Shown here: piece after piece, positions 1 to 22,971 of the stretch
Numbering within the stretch: position 1 is the first letter of the stretch
How the letters are laid out: each line of letters begins with the position of its first letter
Assembly: GCF_029953285.1 (NCBI RefSeq)
Contig: NZ_JASAOI010000058.1
Coordinates: 31,547 to 63,546 of the forward strand
Origin: Yinghuangia seranimata
Lineage (GTDB): Bacteria; Actinomycetota; Actinomycetes; Streptomycetales; Streptomycetaceae
Direction of reading: 5' to 3'
Length of the DNA stretch: 32,000 nt
The notes under the pieces: generated by a model
Told to the model about the DNA's origin: nothing
What the model saw: the letters and a program-made list of their open reading frames with translations, nothing else
Databases searched by the model: none
Translations under genes and position numbers: made by a program

Positions 1-162
1 GTCGAATCCATGAACCCAGGCGACCAGTACGCCGAGGCCGCCGGCGATCCCGGTGAGGCGGCCGACCTGGCCGTGACCACCGGCCGCGCGCACGAGTCCG
101 GAATGCCGGACGTCCCGCTCGACGAGTCCCTGCTCGAACCGGCCGAGGGGGCGACGCCGTGA
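1..162 (+). CDS. 3' end of an upstream hypothetical protein (partial, runs off the window start)
   Basis: Frame 1 is open from base 1 to the TGA at 160-162. About 47 of 53 third codon positions are G/C. The stop overlaps the GTG start of the next gene (GTGA), implying translational coupling. The visible acidic tail (...LDESLLEPAEGATP) has no recognisable motif. Confidence 0.5.
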   Translation, partial: VESMNPGDQYAEAAGDPGEAADLAVTTGRAHESGMPDVPLDESLLEPAEGATP

Positions 163-1874
163 GCCCGTCGGCCGAATCCGTCATCGGCGCCGCACGCGGC
201 GAAGTCGGTTACCACGAAGGAATGTCCCCGTCGGGGCACTGGAACAACATCCAGAAGTACAGCGAGGAAGTCCCGGGCCTGGCCTGGTCGAACGGCGAGC
301 CCTGGTGCGCGACGTTCGTCTCCTGGTGCGCCATGACGGGCGACGCCGCCGACCTGTTCCCCCGCACGGCCTCCTGCGGCGAGGGTCTGGACTGGTTCCG
401 CCGCCGCGGCCGCGGCTCCGACTACCCTGCCGTCGGCGCCCAGGTCTTCTACGGCGTAGGCGGCGAACTCGGCGACGGCGGCCACCACACCGGCGTCGTC
501 TACGCCTACGACGCCACGTACATCTACACGGTCGAAGGCAATGCCCAGCCGCTGGACGCGGCCGTTCTCACCCCGCGCGGTTACGTGCGCATGGGCGACA
601 TCGCGGTGGGGGACGATGTCGTGGATCCGGCCGGGATGCCATCCACGGTCACGGGGGTGTTCCCCAAGGGCACCCGCAAGGTCTACCGCGTCACGCTGCA
701 GGACGGCTCCACCACCGAAGCGTGCGACGAGCACCTGTGGGGCGTCGAGATCGACGCGCGCAAACCGCGCACGGTCACGACAGCCGAACTCGCCAGGGTG
801 GTGGCCAGTCCGAATATGCGGGTCCGGTTGCCGCAGATCCAGCCGGTCGAGTACCTCGTGGACGAGCCGCTCCCGCTGCCGCCGTACCTGCTGGGCGCGC
901 TCATCGGCGAGGGGCGAATGAGCGGCGTCGGACCGCACCTGACCGACCTCGACGCCGAGGCCTCTGCGGCGCTCGGGGGACTCGGGCTGTGGGGTAAGAC
1001 GGCTCGGGAAGTGTTCATCCCCGAGCAGTACAAGCGGGCGACGGTGAAGGACCGTCTCGAACTGCTGCGGGGTCTGATGGACACCGGCGGCGACATCGAT
1101 GCTGCCGGCCGTATCGATTTCGGCAGTTGCTGTGCGCCGCTGGCCGAGGACGTCGGGGAAGTCGTCCGTTCCCTGGGCGGGCACACATCGCTCAAGACCG
1201 AGGCGAACGCAGCGTGCGTGCCACCCGCCTGTCGGCTCCAGAACATCGACATGCCGTTCCACAACCCCTTCGCCGTCCCGCGCAAAGCGGAGCGGTTCAG
1301 GCCGCGGTCCGGCGCCTGGCACCGCAGGGTTGTCAGCGTCGAGTACCTGCGGGACGACGAGGTGCAGTGCATCAGGGTCTCGGCACCCTCGCACCTGTAC
1401 GTCACGGACGACTTCATCCCGACGCACAACACGAACCAGACCGGTTCGGCGGAGGGGGACGGGGTCTACTTCAAGAAGCGGTTGCGGCGGGATCCGTACG
1501 TGTTCGCGTACGGGTATCCGGCGTATCCCGGGGGGATCACCTCGGCCGATCCGGCGTGGGGTGGCGGGCCGGCTGCTCCGCCGCAGGTGGAGCAGGTGTC
1601 GTTGGCGCGGTTGCAGGCGGCGGCCAGGGCGGACGCGCCCGCGCCGGGGACGCCGATGGCGTACCGGGCGGGGACGTTGCTGGTCGAACGTGCCCTGGTG
1701 GCCGAGGGGTTGCTCGACGCGCGGTACGCGGACGGCTCGTACGGGACCAAGACCCTTGCCGCGTACGCCGCGTGGCAGCGGCGGCTCGGGTATGCGGGCG
1801 GGGACGCGGACGGGATCCCCGGGAACGACAGCCTGGCGCGGCTCGGCGCGGCGCACGGGTTCCAGGTCGTGTGA
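159..1874 (+). CDS. CHAP-domain peptidoglycan hydrolase with a C-terminal peptidoglycan-binding-like domain, interrupted by an intein (571-aa precursor; predicted spliced product 275 aa)
   Basis: CHAP signature residues are present: nucleophile context GEPWCATFVSW (Cys50), GGHHTGVVY (His109/110) and YTVEGN (third active-site motif). The C-terminus YGTKTLAAYAAWQRRLGYAGGDADGIPGNDSLARLG resembles the peptidoglycan-binding repeat common in actinomycete and phage wall hydrolases. There is no N-terminal signal peptide. Residues 129-424 form an inserted Hint/LAGLIDADG module. Confidence 0.9.
   Translation: MSPSAESVIGAARGEVGYHEGMSPSGHWNNIQKYSEEVPGLAWSNGEPWCATFVSWCAMTGDAADLFPRTASCGEGLDWFRRRGRGSDYPAVGAQVFYGVGGELGDGGHHTGVVYAYDATYIYTVEGNAQPLDAAVLTPRGYVRMGDIAVGDDVVDPAGMPSTVTGVFPKGTRKVYRVTLQDGSTTEACDEHLWGVEIDARKPRTVTTAELARVVASPNMRVRLPQIQPVEYLVDEPLPLPPYLLGALIGEGRMSGVGPHLTDLDAEASAALGGLGLWGKTAREVFIPEQYKRATVKDRLELLRGLMDTGGDIDAAGRIDFGSCCAPLAEDVGEVVRSLGGHTSLKTEANAACVPPACRLQNIDMPFHNPFAVPRKAERFRPRSGAWHRRVVSVEYLRDDEVQCIRVSAPSHLYVTDDFIPTHNTNQTGSAEGDGVYFKKRLRRDPYVFAYGYPAYPGGITSADPAWGGGPAAPPQVEQVSLARLQAAARADAPAPGTPMAYRAGTLLVERALVAEGLLDARYADGSYGTKTLAAYAAWQRRLGYAGGDADGIPGNDSLARLGAAHGFQVV
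543..1430 (+). mobile_element. Intein (296 aa, residues 129-424 of the CHAP protein) with a class-3-like WCT signature and an embedded LAGLIDADG homing-endonuclease domain
   Basis: Block A is AQPLDAAVLTPRG, which aligns with the canonical C-L-x-x-D-T-x-V-L-T-x-x-G but has Ala at position 1. Block B is TTEACDEHLW (His192, Trp194 at B12). LAGLIDADG-like motifs are LLGALIGEG and LLRGLMDTGG. Block F is EVQCIRVSAPSHLYV (Cys404 at the F4 position usually held by Asp; His412). Block G is FIPTHN followed by Thr+1. Joining the flanks gives ...YTVEGN|TNQTGS..., restoring the usual CHAP EGNT motif. Confidence 0.75.
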
Positions 1875-1886
1875 GTGAAACGTGCT

Positions 1887-1919
1887 GTGGGGCACGGCTG
1901 TTCGGTAGCCGTGCCCCAC
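1887..1919. terminator. Bidirectional rho-independent-type hairpin between the convergent CHAP and acyl-CoA synthetase genes
   Basis: Perfect 13-bp stem GTGGGGCACGGCT / AGCCGTGCCCCAC with a 7-nt loop (gttcggt). It starts 13 nt after the CHAP stop codon. Confidence 0.7.
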
Positions 1920-1931
1920 GGCGGTCGTTGG

Positions 1932-15668: not shown

Positions 15669-15697
15669 GGGACGGCCCGGCGGTCGCGGGCCGTCCC
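15669..15697 (-). terminator. Hairpin downstream of the GH65 gene
   Basis: 11-bp stem GGGACGGCCCG / CGGGCCGTCCC with a 7-nt loop, about 50 nt past the GH65 stop codon. No U-tract, as is common in high-GC actinomycetes. Confidence 0.4.
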
Positions 15698-15746
15698 GGC
15701 GGGGTGGTCTGACGGAGGTCCCTCACGGCGGCCCGGGGGCGGGCCG

Positions 15747-18152
15747 TCACTCGGGCTCGTGGGCCTCCGTCAGGTCGCCGGACGCCAGGCTCGGCCCGGA
15801 CTGGGCGTGCCTGCGCGCCGGTTCGCGTCCGGGCGGCTGGCTGAGCCGCTCCAGCGGCACCGGCCTCGGGATGGGGCGGCTGAGCGGCTTGCCCGGCAGC
15901 ACGAGCAGTTCCTCCTCGTCCTGCACCACCTTGATCGCGTCGCCTTCGAGGAGCGTGTAGGTGGCCTGCGCGCGGGTGATCTCGGTGCGCAGCACGATCT
16001 TGCCGCGCAGCCGCATGGAGAACGCCACGCGCGTGAGGCCGGACGGCAGGCGCGGCCGGAACACCAGGTCCTCGTCGTGGTCGCGCAGCCCGCCGAAGCC
16101 CGCGACCAGCGCGATGCACGCGCCCGCGAGCGACGCCATGTGCAGGCCGTCGCGGGTGTTGCCGCCCAGGTCGTGCAGGTCCATCAGGGCGGCCTCGGCC
16201 AGGTAGTCGTACGCCAGGTCCAGGTGCCCGACCTCGGCCGCGATGACCGCCTGCGTGCACGCCGACAGCGACGAGTCGCGGACCGTCAGGCGCTCGTAGT
16301 ACGCGAAGTTGCGGGCCTTCTCCTCGGCGGTGAACGCGTCGCCGCGCACCTGCATGGCCAGCACCAGGTCGGCCTGCTTGACGACCTGCTTGCGGTACAG
16401 GTCGTAGTACGGGAAGTGCAGCAGCAGCGGGTACTTGTCGGGCGGCGTGTTCTCGAAGTCCCACATCTCGTGGTTGGTGAAGCCCTCGGCCTGCGGGTGG
16501 ACGCCCAGCTTCTCGTCGTACGGGATGAACATCGCGGAGGCGGCGTCCCGCCACTGCGCCATCTCCTCGGTGTCGACGCCGAGTCGGGCCGCCTCGTGCA
16601 GGTGCCGGGTCGCGGAGTCGGCGGCGGCGCGCAGGTTCGCCTGCGCCATGAGGTTCGTGTAGACGTTGTTGTCCGCGATCGAGCTGTACTCGTCGGGCCC
16701 GGTCACGCCGTCGATGCGGAACCGGCCCTCGGCGTCGTGGTGGCCCAGCGAGCGCCACATGCGGGCGGTCTCGACCAGGATCTCCATGCCGAAGTCGCGT
16801 TCGAAGTCGGTGTCGCCGGTGGCCCGCACGTAGCGTTCGACGGCGCGCGCGATGTCGGCGCCGATGTGGAACGCGGCGGTGCCGGCCGGCCAGTACCCGG
16901 AGCACTCCTCGCCGCGGATCGTGCGCCACGGGAACACCGCGCCGGCCAGGCCCAGTTGCGCGGCCCGCTCACGCGCCATCGGCAGCGTGGCGTGCCGCCA
17001 GCGCAGCGCTTGGGCGACGGCCTCGGGCAGGCAGTAGGTGAGCACCGGCAGCACGAACGTCTCGGTGTCCCAGAAGCAGTGCCCGTCGTAGCCGGGCCCG
17101 GTCAGGCCCTTCGCCGGGATCGCCCGCTCCTCGGTCCGCGCGCCCGCCTGCAGCACGTGGAACAGCGCGAACCGGACGGCCTGCTGGAGCTCGACGTCGC
17201 CGTCGATCTCGATGTCGGAGTGCTCCCAGAAGTCCGCGAGGTACTGGCGCTGCTCCTCGACCAGGCCGTCCCAGCCGGTGAAGCGGGCGGCGGTGAGCGC
17301 GGCGGCGACCTGGTCGCGGACGGCCGGCAGCGAGCGGGCGGCCGACCAGCCGTACGCGATGAACTTGATCAGCCGCAGCTTCTCGCCGGCCTTCAGGACG
17401 GTCGTGACGCTGTAGCGGGCCTGGTCCTCCTCGGTCTCGATCTCGCCGAGGTACTGGTTGTCGCACTCGACGACGTGGTCCATGGAGGCCGCCACCCGCA
17501 GTCCGCTGAACCGCGTCTGGTGGACGAGGACCGCCTTGGTCCCGTTGTGCGAGTGCTGCTCGGCGACCAGCGGCGCCTCGAGCACGGCGGACGCGCGCGG
17601 GTCGCCGTTCGCCGACGGCAGCTGCTCGTTCGCGACGAGTTCGGACTGCAGGACGATGCGGGCCGGGCCGTCGACCGGCTCCACCTCGTACGAGATCGCC
17701 GCGACGGCGCGCTGGGTCAGCGACACCAGCCGGGTCGAGGTGACCTTGACGGTGCGGCCGGCCGGCGACGTCCACACGGCGCGGCGGCGCAGCAGGCCGT
17801 CGCGGAAGTCGAGGCGGCGCTCGTGCTGCTTGACGTCGCCGTAGCGCAGGTCGAACGGCTCGTCGTCGACCAGCAGCCGGATGATCTTGCCGTTGGTGAC
17901 GTTGATGACGCTCTGGCCGGACTCCGGCTGGCCGTAGGCGGCCTCGGCGTACGGCAGCGGGCGCAGCTCGAAGACGCCGTTGAGGTAGGTGCCGGGCAGG
18001 CCGTGCGGCTCGCCCTCGTCGAGGTTCGCGCGCAGCCCGACGTGTCCGTTGGACAGCGTGAACACCGACTCGGCGCGGGCCAGCATCTCCAAGTCCAGGG
18101 ACTGCTCGTGCAGGCCCCACGGGTCGACGGTGTAGGCGTCGTGTGCGGTCAT
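15747..18152 (-). CDS. Glycoside hydrolase family 65 disaccharide phosphorylase (trehalose/maltose/kojibiose phosphorylase type) (801 aa)
   Basis: Size and N-terminal pattern (FTLSNGHVGLRANLDEGEP...YLNGVFE) fit, as do the central (alpha/alpha)6 region motifs (GLTGPGYDGHCFWDTE, ADNNVYTN, VVKQADLVLAM). The gene is translationally coupled (ATGA) to a beta-phosphoglucomutase, the classic GH65 partner. Confidence 0.88.
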   Translation of the reverse strand: MTAHDAYTVDPWGLHEQSLDLEMLARAESVFTLSNGHVGLRANLDEGEPHGLPGTYLNGVFELRPLPYAEAAYGQPESGQSVINVTNGKIIRLLVDDEPFDLRYGDVKQHERRLDFRDGLLRRRAVWTSPAGRTVKVTSTRLVSLTQRAVAAISYEVEPVDGPARIVLQSELVANEQLPSANGDPRASAVLEAPLVAEQHSHNGTKAVLVHQTRFSGLRVAASMDHVVECDNQYLGEIETEEDQARYSVTTVLKAGEKLRLIKFIAYGWSAARSLPAVRDQVAAALTAARFTGWDGLVEEQRQYLADFWEHSDIEIDGDVELQQAVRFALFHVLQAGARTEERAIPAKGLTGPGYDGHCFWDTETFVLPVLTYCLPEAVAQALRWRHATLPMARERAAQLGLAGAVFPWRTIRGEECSGYWPAGTAAFHIGADIARAVERYVRATGDTDFERDFGMEILVETARMWRSLGHHDAEGRFRIDGVTGPDEYSSIADNNVYTNLMAQANLRAAADSATRHLHEAARLGVDTEEMAQWRDAASAMFIPYDEKLGVHPQAEGFTNHEMWDFENTPPDKYPLLLHFPYYDLYRKQVVKQADLVLAMQVRGDAFTAEEKARNFAYYERLTVRDSSLSACTQAVIAAEVGHLDLAYDYLAEAALMDLHDLGGNTRDGLHMASLAGACIALVAGFGGLRDHDEDLVFRPRLPSGLTRVAFSMRLRGKIVLRTEITRAQATYTLLEGDAIKVVQDEEELLVLPGKPLSRPIPRPVPLERLSQPPGREPARRHAQSGPSLASGDLTEAHEPE

Positions 18153-18940
18153 CGCGTACCTCGATCCGTTCCGTTGCCCGAGGGGCCCGGCCCCTGCGCG
18201 GGGTCGGCCAGCAGGTCGGCCAGGTCGGCGACCACCACGTCGGCGCCGTGCGCGCGCAGCGCGTCCGCCTGCCCGACCCGGTCCACGCCGACCACCCGGC
18301 CGAAGCCGCCGGCCCGGCCCGACGCGACGCCCGCCAGCGCGTCCTCGAACACCACGGCGTTCTCGGGCTCGTAGCCGAGCTTGCGGGCCGCGGCCAGGAA
18401 GGTGTCGGGCGCCGGCTTGCCCGGCAGGTGCTCCTGCTGGGCGACGATCCCGTCCACGATCACCTCGAACATGCCGTCGAACCCGGCGGCGTGCAGGACG
18501 TCGCGGCAGTTGGCGCTGGAGGACACCACCGCGCGCGGGGCGTTGAGCTCGGCGAGGCGCCGCACGTAGGCCAGCGAGCCCGGGTAGGCGTCCACGCCCT
18601 GCTCGCGGATCATGCGCAGCACCGTGTCGTTCTTGAGGTTGCTCAGGCCCTGCACGGTGCGGGTGCCGGGCGGGTCGTCCGGGGCGCCCTCCGGGAGCGT
18701 GATGCCGCGTGAGGCCAGGAACTCGCGCGTGCCGTCCAGTCGGGGTCTGCCGTCCACGTAGGTGTCGTAGTCCGCGCCCGTGTCGAAGGGCACGAACGGG
18801 GTCCCCGTGCGCTCGGCCTCGGCGCGCAGGAAGCCGTCGAACATGTCCTTCCAGGCCGCGGCGTGCACCTTGGCGGTCTGCGTCAGCACACCGTCGAGGT
18901 CGAAGAGGAAGGCGTGGATGGCGTCCGGCAGTCCCAACAT
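18149..18940 (-). CDS. pgmB: Beta-phosphoglucomutase-family HAD hydrolase
   Basis: HAD motif I FLFDLDGVLTQT. Motif II VVSSS. Motif III/IV GKPAPDTFL...VVFEDALAGVASGRAGG. The start is uncertain between the ATG at 18940 (MLGLPDAIHAFLFDLDG, chosen) and the ATG at 18973. Its stop overlaps the GH65 start (ATGA). Confidence 0.82.
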   Translation of the reverse strand: MLGLPDAIHAFLFDLDGVLTQTAKVHAAAWKDMFDGFLRAEAERTGTPFVPFDTGADYDTYVDGRPRLDGTREFLASRGITLPEGAPDDPPGTRTVQGLSNLKNDTVLRMIREQGVDAYPGSLAYVRRLAELNAPRAVVSSSANCRDVLHAAGFDGMFEVIVDGIVAQQEHLPGKPAPDTFLAAARKLGYEPENAVVFEDALAGVASGRAGGFGRVVGVDRVGQADALRAHGADVVVADLADLLADPAQGPGPSGNGTDRGTR

Positions 18941-19839: not shown

Positions 19840-20694
19840 TCAGCCCTTCGCGACGACGGTGAGCAGGTGCGCGACGGTGTCCGCCATCGCCTGGCGGGCC
19901 GCGGTCAGGCTGGGGCGCGGGTCGGTGCGCTCGGGGTGTGCGGCGAGTTCGGCGCGCAGGGCGGCGGTGTAGGCGAGGTTGAGCGCCGTGCCTATGTTGA
20001 TCTTCGTCATGCCGTGCGCGGTCGCCGCGCGCAGCTCGTCGTCCGGGACGCCAGACGAGCCGTGCAGCACCAGCGGCACCGCGACCGCCGCGTGCAGTTC
20101 GGCGATCAGGTTGTGGTCGAGCGCCGCCGTGCGGGTCGTCATGGCGTGGCTGCTGCCGACGGCGACGGCCAGCGCGTCGACACCGGTCGCCGCGACGTAG
20201 TCGACGGCCTCGTCGGGCCGCGTCCGCGCGCCGGGCGCGTGCGCGTCGAGTGCCGGCTCGCCGGCCTTCCCGCCGACCTGGCCGAGCTCGGCCTCCAGCC
20301 ACAGGCCGCGGCCGTGCGCCCATGCGGCGGCGGCGCGGGTCGCGGCGACGTTGTCCGCGTAGGACAGCTTCGACGCGTCGAACATGACCGAACTGATCGC
20401 CGTGCCCTCGACCGCGAGCAGGAGCTCCTCGGAGACGACGTGGTCGAGGTGCAGGCCCACCGCGACGGACGCGGAGTCGGCGAGCGCCGCGCACGCGTCG
20501 GCGAGCGGGCGCAGGCGACCGTCGTGGAACCGCACCGCGTTCTCGCTGAGCGCCACGATGACGGGGAGGCCGACGGCCTCGGCGCCGGCGACGATCGCCT
20601 CGGCGTGTTCGAGCGTGATGGCGTTGAAGGCGGCGGCCCCGCGTCCGGCCTCGCGTGCCGACGCGACGATGTCACCGGTGACCGTGAGCGGCAT
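19840..20694 (-). CDS. Class II ketose-bisphosphate aldolase (tagatose-/fructose-1,6-bisphosphate aldolase family) (284 aa)
   Basis: Family motifs AFNAITLEHAEAIV, VGLHLDHV, LEAELGQVGG, AVAVGSSHA, LVLHGSSGVPDDEL and TKINIGT. Confidence 0.85.
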   Translation of the reverse strand: MPLTVTGDIVASAREAGRGAAAFNAITLEHAEAIVAGAEAVGLPVIVALSENAVRFHDGRLRPLADACAALADSASVAVGLHLDHVVSEELLLAVEGTAISSVMFDASKLSYADNVAATRAAAAWAHGRGLWLEAELGQVGGKAGEPALDAHAPGARTRPDEAVDYVAATGVDALAVAVGSSHAMTTRTAALDHNLIAELHAAVAVPLVLHGSSGVPDDELRAATAHGMTKINIGTALNLAYTAALRAELAAHPERTDPRPSLTAARQAMADTVAHLLTVVAKG

Positions 20695-21805
20695 GGCCGT
20701 TCCCTTCGGGGGTTTGGGGTGCGGGGGCGGAGGGCTCGGCGGGGGCCTTGCCTCGCAGGGCGGTGGAGAGGCTGGCGGCGGGCTCGCCCGCCTGGGCGGC
20801 TCCGCCGCGCTGTGCGGTGCCGGGCCGGAGGTTCAGGCCCGGTGTCCCGGCCCCGGGATCCCGTTGGCCGTGGGGCGGTTCGACGGCGCCGACCAGGACG
20901 TGGGCGCGGGCCGTGACGTATGTCGTGCGGTCGACGCTGCCGGCCACCGGCGCCGCGACCGCCGAGGCGGACCACGCGACGGCCTCGGCCAGGCGGTCGG
21001 GCCACGGGCGTCCGGCGGTGAGGCCGGCCAGGAGGGCGGCCACACCCGCGTCGCCCGCGCCGGTCGGATTGCCCTGGATGGCGTACGGGAGACGGGCCCG
21101 CCACCAGCCCGCGGCGGTCGCGGCGAGCAGGCCCTCGGGACCGAAGGAGGCCACCACCGCGTCGCCGCCCGCCGCGCGCAGCTGGGCGGAGAGCGCGGCG
21201 ACGGCGCGTGCCGGATCGGACTCGCCGGTGGCCTCACGGAGTTCGTCGGCGTTCGGCTTGACCAGGTCGGGGCCCGCGGCCAGGCCCGCGTGCAGGGCCG
21301 GGCCCGACGTGTCCAGGAGCACCGGCACACCCGCGTCGCGGGCGCGGCGGACCAGGTCGGCGTACGCGTCGGTCGGCACGCCCGGCGGCAGGCTCCCGCA
21401 CAACGCGACCGCGTGCGCCTGCGGCAGCAGGCGGTCGAACGCCTCGCACAGCGCGGCCCATTCGCCTGCACTGAGCTCGGGGCCGGCCTCGTTGAAGACC
21501 GTCGTCTCGCCGGCCGCCGCGTCCACCACGGTCGTCGTGCGGCGCGTCTCACCGGTGACGGGCACGGTCGCGTCGCGCGGGCCCGCCTGCGCGAGGTCCT
21601 CGCGCACCCCGTCGCCGGTCCGCCCGCCGAGCGGCCCCAGCACGGTGGCGGGTATGCCCAGCGCGGTCAGCACGCGGGCGACGTTGAGCCCCTTGCCGCC
21701 CGCCCGCGCGGATATTCGCTCGACGCGGTTGCTGCCGTCCCAGACCACCTCGTCCAGGTGATACGTGACGTCCAGCGCCGGATTGGGGGTGACCGTGAGG
21801 ATCAT
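20672..21805 (-). CDS. PfkB-family hexose-phosphate kinase (1-phosphofructokinase / tagatose-6-phosphate kinase type) with a roughly 70-aa low-complexity C-terminal tail (377 aa)
   Basis: MILTVTPNPALDVTY, RISARAGGKGLNVARVL, LVKPNADEL and NPTGAGDAGVAALLAGL (the PfkB anion-hole/ATP motif). The start ATG at 21805 shares one base with the NagA stop (TGATG). The tail overlaps the aldolase start by 23 nt. Confidence 0.85.
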   Translation of the reverse strand: MILTVTPNPALDVTYHLDEVVWDGSNRVERISARAGGKGLNVARVLTALGIPATVLGPLGGRTGDGVREDLAQAGPRDATVPVTGETRRTTTVVDAAAGETTVFNEAGPELSAGEWAALCEAFDRLLPQAHAVALCGSLPPGVPTDAYADLVRRARDAGVPVLLDTSGPALHAGLAAGPDLVKPNADELREATGESDPARAVAALSAQLRAAGGDAVVASFGPEGLLAATAAGWWRARLPYAIQGNPTGAGDAGVAALLAGLTAGRPWPDRLAEAVAWSASAVAAPVAGSVDRTTYVTARAHVLVGAVEPPHGQRDPGAGTPGLNLRPGTAQRGGAAQAGEPAASLSTALRGKAPAEPSAPAPQTPEGNGHAAHGHR

Positions 21806-22971
21806 CAGGCGTCCAGGCCGTCGCCGACCCAACGCCCGCCCCACAGCACGGCGTCCACCTTCAGATCCTCGTCCAGCACGATCAGGTCGGCCTGCTTGCC
21901 CGCCTCGATCGAGCCGACCTTGTCGGCGATGCCGAGCGCGCGCGCCGGGGTCGCGCTCAACGCGGTGACGACGTCCGTGATCGGCAGGTGGTTCTCGCGC
22001 ACCGCGGTCCGCAGCGCGCGGTCCAGGGTCAGCGTGCTGCCCGCGATCGAGTCGCCGTCGGCGAGCCGCGCTATTCCGCCCTCGACCCGGGCGGTCATCG
22101 GGCCGAGCGGATACGTGCCGTCAGGCATGCCGGCCGCGCCCATCGCGTCGGTGATGAACGCGACGCGCGACGAACCGGCCGCCTGGAACGCCAGGTTGAC
22201 GATGCCGGGATGCAGGTGCACGCCGTCGTTGATCAGCTCGACCACCACATCGCTGTCCTGCAACAGCGCGGTCACCGGGCCCGGTTCGCGGTGGTGCACG
22301 CTGCGCATCGCGTTGAACAGGTGCGTCGCGACGCTCGCACCCGCCGCGAGCGCGGCCTGCGTCTCGCGGTGCGTGCCGTCGGTGTGGCCGACGGCCGCCA
22401 GCACACCCGCGTCCACCAAACGGTGCACGAGGTCGACACCGCCCGGCAGTTCGGGCGCCAACGTCACCATGCGGACCGTCCCGCGCCCGGCCTTGAGCAA
22501 CGCGTCGACCTCGGCCCGGTCGGGCTCCCGCAGCAGGTCGGGATCGTGCGCGCCGCACCGGGCCCGGCTCAGATACGGGCCCTCCAGGTGCACGCCCGCC
22601 AGCACGCCGTCCTCGACCAGGCCCGCCAACTCCGAGACGCTACGAAGGAGTTCGTCCTGCGTCGCGGTAACCAGCGAAGCCATCGTCGTGGTCGTGCCGT
22701 GCGCCCGGTGGAACGCCGCCACCCGCAACGCCTGGTCGGCGTCCCCCGCGGTGTACGACGCACCGCCACCCCCGTGCACATGCATGTCCACGAACCCGGG
22801 CACCAGCCAACGCCCGCCCAGGTCGTGCACCGTCGCACCAGGCGTCTCCGGCAACGAGCCGGGCCCACCGACCGCCGTGATCAGGCCGTCGGCCACGGCC
22901 ACTTCGCCGCCCTCCAGCACACCGGACGACAGGACCACACGGGCCCCAGTGAATCGGGTCTGACGGATCAC
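21805..22971 (-). CDS. nagA: N-acetylhexosamine-6-phosphate deacetylase (NagA/AgaA family amidohydrolase) (388 aa)
   Basis: GFVDMHVHGGGG, LEGPYLS, APELPGG, GHTDGT, THLFNAM, LINDGVHLHP, ITDAM and AGKQADLIVLD. The GTG at 22971 overlaps the ROK stop (GTGA). Confidence 0.88.
   Translation of the reverse strand: MIRQTRFTGARVVLSSGVLEGGEVAVADGLITAVGGPGSLPETPGATVHDLGGRWLVPGFVDMHVHGGGGASYTAGDADQALRVAAFHRAHGTTTTMASLVTATQDELLRSVSELAGLVEDGVLAGVHLEGPYLSRARCGAHDPDLLREPDRAEVDALLKAGRGTVRMVTLAPELPGGVDLVHRLVDAGVLAAVGHTDGTHRETQAALAAGASVATHLFNAMRSVHHREPGPVTALLQDSDVVVELINDGVHLHPGIVNLAFQAAGSSRVAFITDAMGAAGMPDGTYPLGPMTARVEGGIARLADGDSIAGSTLTLDRALRTAVRENHLPITDVVTALSATPARALGIADKVGSIEAGKQADLIVLDEDLKVDAVLWGGRWVGDGLDA

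Follow-up and report, generated by a model that had tools for sequence, protein, structure and literature searches.

A putative class 3 intein at the active-site loop of an endolysin-type CHAP hydrolase of Yinghuangia seranimata

Why should the catalytic domain of a cell-wall hydrolase break off directly after one of its most conserved motifs and resume 296 residues later? The question is raised by a gene at the left end of a 32,000-nucleotide (nt) stretch of the Yinghuangia seranimata genome (contig NZ_JASAOI010000058.1, positions 31,547 to 63,546; the whole stretch is called the window below, and all positions are numbered within it). The gene (159..1874, + strand, GTG start) encodes a precursor of 571 amino acids (aa) plus stop, a CHAP hydrolase of the endolysin type carrying an insert, and the precursor is 100% identical to the NCBI entry ‘CHAP domain-containing protein [Yinghuangia seranimata]’. 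A first-pass annotation, made from the sequence alone, had proposed that the insert is a class 3 intein. The comparisons described here make it very probable that the 296-aa segment is indeed a class 3 intein of HINT fold, with a degenerate LAGLIDADG module nested within it, and that it lies in the EGN-T motif of a homologue of the CHAP endolysins of Streptomyces phages (hyphens in one-letter motifs mark splice junctions).

The interrupted CHAP domain

The Pfam CHAP profile matches aa 44-128 of the precursor (E=5e-8, 33.7 bits against a cut-off of 26), and the match runs to the final position of the profile (81/81), ending at ...YTVEGN. A break at this point, followed by a 296-aa insert at nt 543-1430, had been the starting point of the earlier annotation; its coordinates and residue numbers are right at the DNA level, where His192 is found at 732-734, Trp194 at 738-740, Cys404 at 1368-1370, Thr422-His423-Asn424 at 1422-1430 and Thr425 at 1431-1433. 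Removal of the insert from the precursor yields TVEGN-TNQTGSAEGDGVY. Homologues that lack the insert read in the same way: all 16 that were aligned, which are bacterial or from prophages, continue across this point without a gap in a TVEGNTNxNGSxEGDGVY-like sequence of the pattern (T/A)(V/I)EGN(T/S)N, with G127 and N128 invariant, and the deduced spliced sequence TVEGNTNQTGSAEGDGVY agrees with the intein-less consensus TVEGNTNTNGSAEGDGVY. When the spliced catalytic domain was compared with 50,697 phage records by tblastn, 71 Streptomyces phage records were matched at 52-63% identity. Every one of the 71 aligns in a single piece, so that the insert is in none, and nearly all are annotated as endolysin or lysin, including gp50 of phiC31 and phiBT1. 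The proposal that excision recreates the EGNT motif is thus borne out by both sets of sequences, and the 16 homologues and 71 phage records, being free of the segment, do not show it as a domain that CHAP proteins routinely keep.

The exact ends of the insert cannot be read from the product, as an Asn stands at both flanks and excision of residues 128-423 or 129-424 gives the same protein. The boundary was set at Ala129/Asn424 because intein chemistry needs a C-terminal Asn followed by Thr, and because of the alignment of the family in other host proteins, where sites such as GK-AQPL...THN-T place the N-terminal boundary at Ala129. The N-extein (aa 1-128; 159..542, + strand) is therefore the N-terminal part of the CHAP domain, and Pfam and the conservation among homologues place every candidate catalytic residue in it, namely the conserved Cys50 (306-308), His110 (486-488), Glu126 (534-536) and Asn128 (540-542). 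The C-extein (aa 425-571; 1431..1871, + strand) begins with Thr+1 (1431-1433) and comprises the remaining CHAP strands (to ~1570), a linker and a peptidoglycan-binding domain (~1683-1844), the last being recognized by the NCBIfam profile PG_bind_siph at the C-terminus of the precursor (aa 510-562, E=3.5e-8).

By homology the host protein belongs to the endolysin family, and the window copy is a chromosomal orphan of that family. Cys50, His110, Glu126, Gly127 and Asn128 are invariant across 17 intein-bearing homologues, and the arrangement Cys50...His110...Glu126-Gly-Asn128 parallels Cys54, His117, Glu134 and Asn136 of CHAPK. Glu134 of CHAPK closes beta-strand D, and Asn136, in the D-E loop lining the substrate groove, is a candidate oxyanion-hole residue (PMC4126393). 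A structural model of the spliced catalytic domain has a predicted local distance difference test (pLDDT) score of 85.6 and shows strands continuing past the junction. Its best PDB matches found by Foldseek are the CHAP endolysins PlyPy, Ly7917 and PlyGRCS, together with the E. coli Gsp amidase, at modest template-modelling (TM) scores of 0.46-0.53. No match to the spliced extein was obtained among PDB sequences by phmmer or with a 13-sequence profile, and the CHAP fold is shown by structure prediction and Foldseek. These fold matches and the identity to Streptomyces phage endolysins agree with the endolysin-type host named at the outset.

The notion that the insert splits the active site holds in part. 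It does enter the active-site loop, directly after the Asn128 of EGN, but the catalytic residues all remain in the N-extein and are not parted from each other. What the intein separates is strand D from the later CHAP strands, at the edge of the active site. This separation makes it plausible that the unspliced precursor would be inactive as a hydrolase.

Splicing motifs and the class of the intein

The insert (543..1430, + strand; aa 129-424), its class 3 signature apparent from alignments, family and predicted fold, was compared with all PDB chains by phmmer. It matched inteins only, among them gp41-1 (6e-11) and the class 3 DnaBi1 intein of M. smegmatis (MsmDnaBi1; 6BS8; 4.5e-9), and these alignments cover the N-terminal part with blocks A and B and the C-terminal part with blocks F and G. 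Such intein-only matches exclude chance as an explanation of the likeness. The N-terminal splicing half (543..860, + strand), with blocks A and B, aligns to gp41-1, MsmDnaBi1 and gp11 of phage Bethlehem, and contains Ala1 (543-545), Cys61 at block B position 7 (723-725), His64 (732-734) and Trp66 (738-740). The C-terminal splicing half (1263..1430, + strand) contains block F, EVQCIRVSAPSHLYV (1359-1403), with Cys276 of the intein, which is Cys404 of the precursor (1368-1370, + strand), and block G with Thr-His-Asn (1422-1430).

Class 3 inteins are defined by a non-nucleophilic residue 1, a Trp-Cys-Thr triplet at positions B12, F4 and G5, and Thr or Ser at +1 (PMC2807308). The window intein has Ala129 at position 1, the triplet, and Thr425 at +1. 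It aligns end-to-end by BLASTP with the class 3 prototype, the intein of Bethlehem gp11 (E=2e-24, 29% identity), whose translation reproduces the published numbering exactly (Pro1, His65, Trp67, Cys320, Ile321, His328, Phe330, Thr339, His340, Asn341 and Thr+1). In this alignment H64, W66, C276, I277, H284, Y286, T294, H295, N296 and T+1 of the window intein correspond to His65, Trp67, Cys320, Ile321, His328, Phe330, Thr339, His340, Asn341 and Thr+1 of gp11, and mutation of those positions blocks or impairs splicing in the prototype (PMC2807308). Trp194, Cys404 and Thr422 of the precursor thus lie on Trp67 (B12), Cys320 (F4) and Thr339 (G5) and not outside these positions. In block A the first-pass annotation was correct about Ala1 but not about position 2, which is Gln and not Leu.

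The same residues are conserved in the family at large. Among 78 related inteins recovered by homology search, His(B10), Trp(B12), Cys(F4), Thr(G5), the penultimate His and the terminal Asn are each present in 78/78, and the +1 residue is Thr in 74 and Ser in 4. Residue 1 is Ala in 61, Pro in 14, and Cys, Phe and Gly in one each. The hosts of the 78 are of about ten unrelated types, including CHAP hydrolases, tail-tube-like and portal proteins, PhoH, DnaB, Snf2-type helicases, RecA, terminase and TraM-recognition proteins. The class 3 assignment is therefore supported both by the position of the triplet on that of Bethlehem and by its invariance in the family. Structure prediction points the same way: an AlphaFold model of the precursor (mean pLDDT 84) matches the PI-SceI (E=9e-12), TliVMA and PhoVMA inteins, and it matches the class 3 inteins MchDnaB-1 and MsmDnaBi1 (6riy, 6bs8) with a target-normalised TM score of ~0.8.

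The two closest points of reference are the prototype and MsmDnaBi1. With Bethlehem gp11 (PMC2807308) the window intein shares the lack of a nucleophile at residue 1, His and Trp in block B, Cys-Ile in block F, an aromatic residue ten positions after that Cys, Thr-His-Asn, Thr+1 and a LAGLIDADG endonuclease between the splicing halves. It differs in having Ala1 in place of Pro1 and a length of 296 aa instead of 341 aa, its endonuclease being truncated with one catalytic Asp lost, and in its host, a chromosomal peptidoglycan hydrolase rather than a phage ATPase. With MsmDnaBi1 (6BS8, PMC6195587) it shares Ala1, the ALxLD...TP.GW pattern of block A, HxW in block B, V.C in block F and the PTHN end; MsmDnaBi1, on the other hand, has no endonuclease, occupies a helicase P-loop and carries a regulatory Cys48. 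A redox pair of the DnaBi1 type, Cys48-Cys118, was considered for the window intein and rejected, as Cys48 aligns with Val. The window intein has Cys61 instead, and Cys is found at this block B position in 14 of the 17 CHAP inteins aligned. In class 1 inteins Thr is the usual residue there. Cys61 might form a pair with the catalytic Cys of block F.

Ala1 is also a feature of the KlbA-type inteins of class 2, and it might be argued that Thr+1 attacks the N-terminal junction directly, as in class 2 splicing, with no block F thioester. By definition, however, class 2 inteins lack the Trp-Cys-Thr triplet, and they use Cys+1 (PMC2807308), whereas the window intein has Thr+1, a poor direct nucleophile for an amide, and a triplet that is invariant in its family. 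This route is extremely unlikely here. Much the same can be said of a HINT domain that cleaves at its N- or C-terminus without ligation and so releases fragments. Cleavage-only HINT domains, the bacterial intein-like (BIL) domains, are well established, and off-pathway N-terminal cleavage is seen in class 3 mutants (PMC2807308). Yet the set of residues for ligation is complete in the window intein, with Thr+1, the C-terminal Asn and the penultimate His; the insertion is within a single fold whose halves rebuild the intein-less consensus; and the family also occupies helicase P-loops and portal and tail-tube proteins, which need religation to work. A BIL-like activity is accordingly given very little credence, and the window intein is probably competent for splicing, judging from its conserved residues.

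If the splicing route is taken over from the class 3 prototype, as inferred here by analogy, translation would give the 571-aa precursor and, position 1 being Ala, Cys404 of block F would attack the Asn128-Ala129 bond with the aid of His192 and Trp194. The resulting thioester-linked branched intermediate would pass the N-extein to the side chain of Thr425 at +1. Cyclisation of Asn424 would then free the intein, and an O-to-N shift would produce a native peptide bond. The predicted products are the free intein and a hydrolase of 275 aa whose active-site loop, ...TVEGNTNQTG..., is intact, the junction reading ...YTVEGN-TNQTGSAEGDGVYFK.

Such a route invites the idea that the intein is a post-translational safety catch, the precursor being held inactive by the 296 residues wedged after Glu-Gly-Asn and activated by thiol-dependent class 3 splicing. 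Splicing of the class 3 DnaBi1 intein is reversibly blocked by oxidants or zinc, its catalytic Cys being sensitive to redox state and to zinc. We regard a role of this kind in the window gene as doubtful, though it would have consequences if true. In phages a safety catch would add a layer to the timing of lysis, and the chromosomal copies in Yinghuangia and Kitasatospora could be domesticated, conditionally activated autolysins with a translationally coupled small acidic open reading frame (ORF).

Decay of the homing endonuclease and the question of a relic

Between the splicing halves lies a degenerate LAGLIDADG homing-endonuclease module (861..1262, + strand), delimited by the alignment, the model and a LAGLIDADG_3 match below the cut-off. 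Two LAGLIDADG-like motifs had been noted, and both are present on the + strand: PYLLGALIGEG (882-914), where the Glu of ...LIGEG is retained, and RLELLRGLMDTGG (1053-1091), where LLRGLMDTGG has Gly in place of the catalytic Asp. The second motif is therefore defective and the module as a whole degenerate, a point the first-pass annotation had missed. Related inteins on phage-like and metagenomic contigs are 330-351 aa long, against 296 aa here, and their two LAGLIDADG motifs have the forms ...G(D/E)G and ...D(S/T/A)DG; the motif 2 catalytic position is Asp in 11 of 17 CHAP-intein relatives. Compared with relatives of 340-350 aa, the window endonuclease is without ~50 aa after motif 1 and ~10 aa further on, and in the precursor model its first half-domain has no beta-strands. 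An active LAGLIDADG enzyme should have two LAGLIDADG helices, both closed by a catalytic Asp or Glu, and complete alpha-beta-beta-alpha-beta-beta-alpha half-domains that build the DNA-binding saddle; with the second catalytic Asp absent and the fold incomplete, the window module falls short of this. The loss of ~50 residues and one catalytic Asp means that this copy of the intein is probably no longer mobile, as judged from its sequence. Other chromosomal copies (homologues P0003 and P0005-P0008) show independent deletions and motif losses.

The splicing domain has fared differently. In 16/16 pairwise comparisons the splicing halves show higher conservation than the exteins do. Ratios of non-synonymous to synonymous substitution (dN/dS, Nei-Gojobori), taken from two orthologue pairs and thus from small samples without a significance test, come to 0.19-0.28 in the splicing halves and 0.21 in the C-extein, and to 0.42-0.48 in the endonuclease; for the window module the figure is 0.42, set beside 0.19-0.24 in the splicing halves. 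In a window of 73% guanine plus cytosine (GC), the GC content at third codon positions is 0.88 in the intein and 0.90-0.92 in the exteins, and this equality marks the intein as a long-term resident. The pattern fits the one expected of a long-resident, fixed intein in which homing decays and splicing is kept, as the host gene depends on it.

A number of observations weigh against this reading. The profile matches looked for in the Hint and LAGLIDADG families exist but fall short of their cut-offs, at E=0.055-0.14 and 12.6-13.9 bits against 32.1 for Hom_end_hint and at E=0.018, below the curated cut-off, for Pfam LAGLIDADG_3; the predicted fold matches PI-SceI and the solved class 3 inteins. 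The position of Asp324 in the prototype is occupied by Ser, and replacement of Asp324 by Ala lowers splicing in the prototype (PMC2807308). Constraint on the N-extein is not strong, its dN/dS being 0.54 in one pair. Within the window, which covers only 158 bases upstream of the hydrolase gene, neither a holin gene nor prophage genes are seen beside it, and the relatives L001 and L005 are likewise lone chromosomal genes with no adjoining holin or phage genes. As no lysis cassette is visible around the gene and the window is without upstream context, the host gene could be a decaying remnant.

Taken further, these points would make the locus a dead relic, the leftover of a degraded prophage, with an intein that has ceased to splice and a precursor that is inactive and decays slowly. 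The visible decay of the endonuclease and the want of synteny between the flanks of the window gene and those of its closest relative add to that view, as do the solitary settings and the N-extein ratio just mentioned. Against it, a frame of 571 codons has stayed open in a 73% GC genome, the splicing and CHAP catalytic residues have all been kept, dN/dS is low in the splicing halves with relaxation confined to the endonuclease, and an orthologue is intact and syntenic in two Kitasatospora species. Decay of the endonuclease alone is, moreover, what is expected of a fixed intein that still splices. We consider a dead relic unlikely, and prefer a resident, splicing class 3 intein that has probably lost its capacity for homing.

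Host range, distribution and genomic setting

The first-pass annotation had called class 3 inteins rare and their occurrence in a wall hydrolase unusual. The former fails in actinobacteria and their phages, where class 3 accounts for 287/784 actinophage inteins (bioRxiv 10.1101/2025.01.02.630785). The present family has at least 591 confirmed loci in species-representative genomes, mostly of Streptomyces, and at least 580 loci in IMG/VR. It is the host protein that is rare. Among the 80 best intein loci in IMG/VR none has a CHAP N-extein (0/80), and an exhaustive comparison with 1.84 billion cluster representatives by phmmer yielded 3,901 matches at E<=1e-30, mostly to the intein in other hosts, with ~17 of the best 150 representatives combining CHAP and intein across the junction. 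All of the 11 CHAP-intein representatives checked by sequence have (E/D)GN-x...THN-(T/S), HxW and the block F Cys.

Inteins in general are found overwhelmingly in hosts that bind nucleic acids or nucleotides. The unusual host fits two surveys of actinophage inteins, neither of which names a lysin. Nucleic-acid binding proteins make up all phage intein hosts and 84.9% of bacterial ones, with no lysin given, in one (Kelley 2016, PMC5050341); the other, a 2025 survey of PhagesDB, lists 19 host genes, again without a lysin, and finds class 3 in four host types (bioRxiv 10.1101/2025.01.02.630785). The actinophage class 3 inteins, in terminase, Cas4 exonuclease, helicase and minor capsid genes, are of the same class and gene pool as the window intein and also carry LAGLIDADG, but none is in a cell-wall hydrolase (bioRxiv 10.1101/2025.01.02.630785; PMC5050341). 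No report of an intein occurring naturally in an endolysin, a CHAP domain or a peptidoglycan hydrolase was found in the literature searched, the coverage of which was incomplete, and this absence is not proof. Together these supports favour the CHAP endolysin being an intein host protein not described before. Databases already hold such proteins under generic names, for example ‘LAGLIDADG family homing endonuclease’.

The window locus and the ~17 related protein clusters show that the same class 3 lineage has entered CHAP endolysins at their active-site loop, and widen the host range of inteins to an enzyme acting on the cell wall. The interest of the case lies in the host protein and in the possibility that a lytic enzyme is activated conditionally. 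Regulation of hosts by inteins is debated, and activation of a lysin offers a natural test bed with an all-or-nothing readout, lysis; self-activating lysins could also serve engineering. The locus further shows a late stage of the intein life cycle, with the endonuclease decaying and the splicing domain under purifying selection.

Position 1 varies among the CHAP-site inteins, with examples of Gly1, Ser1 (P0153) and Cys1 (P0164). The last two have the full Trp-Cys-Thr triplet as well as Ser1 or Cys1 and are of the rare ‘triplet plus N-terminal nucleophile’ type, the mechanism of which was left open in the 2010 paper (PMC2807308). In a neighbour-joining tree, which was drawn without bootstrap and is a hint only, most CHAP inteins form one clade, whose neighbours are tail-tube-like inteins at GGMN-TT. 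Asn at -1 and Thr at +1, with Gly nearby, recur in unrelated hosts, as in CHAP EGN-TN, tail tube GGMN-TT, QGN-TSN and portal RQFN-TD. These shared junctions hint that the inteins switch hosts through short stretches of similar sequence, or that splicing favours Asn at -1. Some members of the family occur in multiples: P0029, a 499-aa protein of the tail-tube family PF06841, has two tandem endonuclease-free mini-inteins with nine extein residues between them (...PTHN-TTTQKMPGQ-AQPLDAQ...THN), and P0121, P0122 and other proteins of 1200-2300 aa match the intein in 4-7 stretches, which implies that each holds two or more inteins of the family.

The window gene is a solitary endolysin homologue in the chromosome, outside any visible prophage or lysis cassette. 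Endolysins of the phiC31 gp50 type, with CHAP and peptidoglycan-binding repeats, resemble its product in the EGNTN motif and in the C-terminal binding domain; they differ in having no intein in the 71 records and in lying in lysis cassettes, whereas the window gene stands alone after a small acidic ORF. The precursor is without a signal peptide by inspection, as had been stated, and without an adjacent holin. Downstream are metabolic and regulatory genes, for an acyl-CoA ligase, a 2-hydroxyacid dehydrogenase, a 2-oxoacid:ferredoxin oxidoreductase, TetR, GGDEF and GH65 proteins and an aldolase.

The closest relative (L001 / L006) is 65% identical and is a lone gene between ArsC and an M1 peptidase; beyond the gene itself its flanks show no synteny with the window. 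Two Kitasatospora species have the intein-bearing gene intact and in synteny, in a conserved core region with MurJ, inositol-1-phosphate synthase, a penicillin-binding protein (PBP) and rpsF. An intein-less Kitasatospora homologue (P0035) belongs to a prophage, where the tape-measure and minor tail genes immediately precede it and small membrane ORFs follow. On a phage-like contig, an intein-bearing homologue (P0010) comes behind three small ORFs of membrane or lipobox type. The phage context of CHAP inteins comes from two metagenome contigs only, L002 and L004. The latter, a 92-kb phage-like contig with a CHAP-intein lysin, also has GIY-YIG/NUMOD3 homing-endonuclease-like genes and a second long LAGLIDADG ORF (15675-18159, 19919-21920), and is a genome rich in selfish elements.

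The small acidic ORF (1..162, + strand) is represented in the window by its 3' part, the 5' end being cut by the window start; it ends in a TGA that overlaps the start codon (GTG) of the hydrolase gene in the sequence GTGA. Its product, in which neither a transmembrane segment nor a Pfam hit was found, may cooperate with the hydrolase as a partner or inhibit it. A 65-aa counterpart occupies the same position in L001 (9807-10004), and a similar sequence (..AGDPGxAAxLPVxTGRxPEAGxPD..) is fused N-terminally in the intein-less homologues P0088 and P0101. Beyond the hydrolase gene there is a perfect, GC-rich hairpin of 18 bp (1883..1923; minimum free energy -41.4 kcal/mol, z = -6.1). Scans for canonical promoters and terminators found nothing and missed this hairpin, which has no T-run. 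It is placed where the hydrolase and acyl-CoA ligase genes converge and is a likely terminator, though one without a T-run.

L006 and L001, from the contigs that bear the labels Yinghuangia aomiensis JCM 17986 and Uniformispora flossi, are 95% identical over 21.8 kb and therefore count as one lineage, not two. The two names probably belong to very close relatives.

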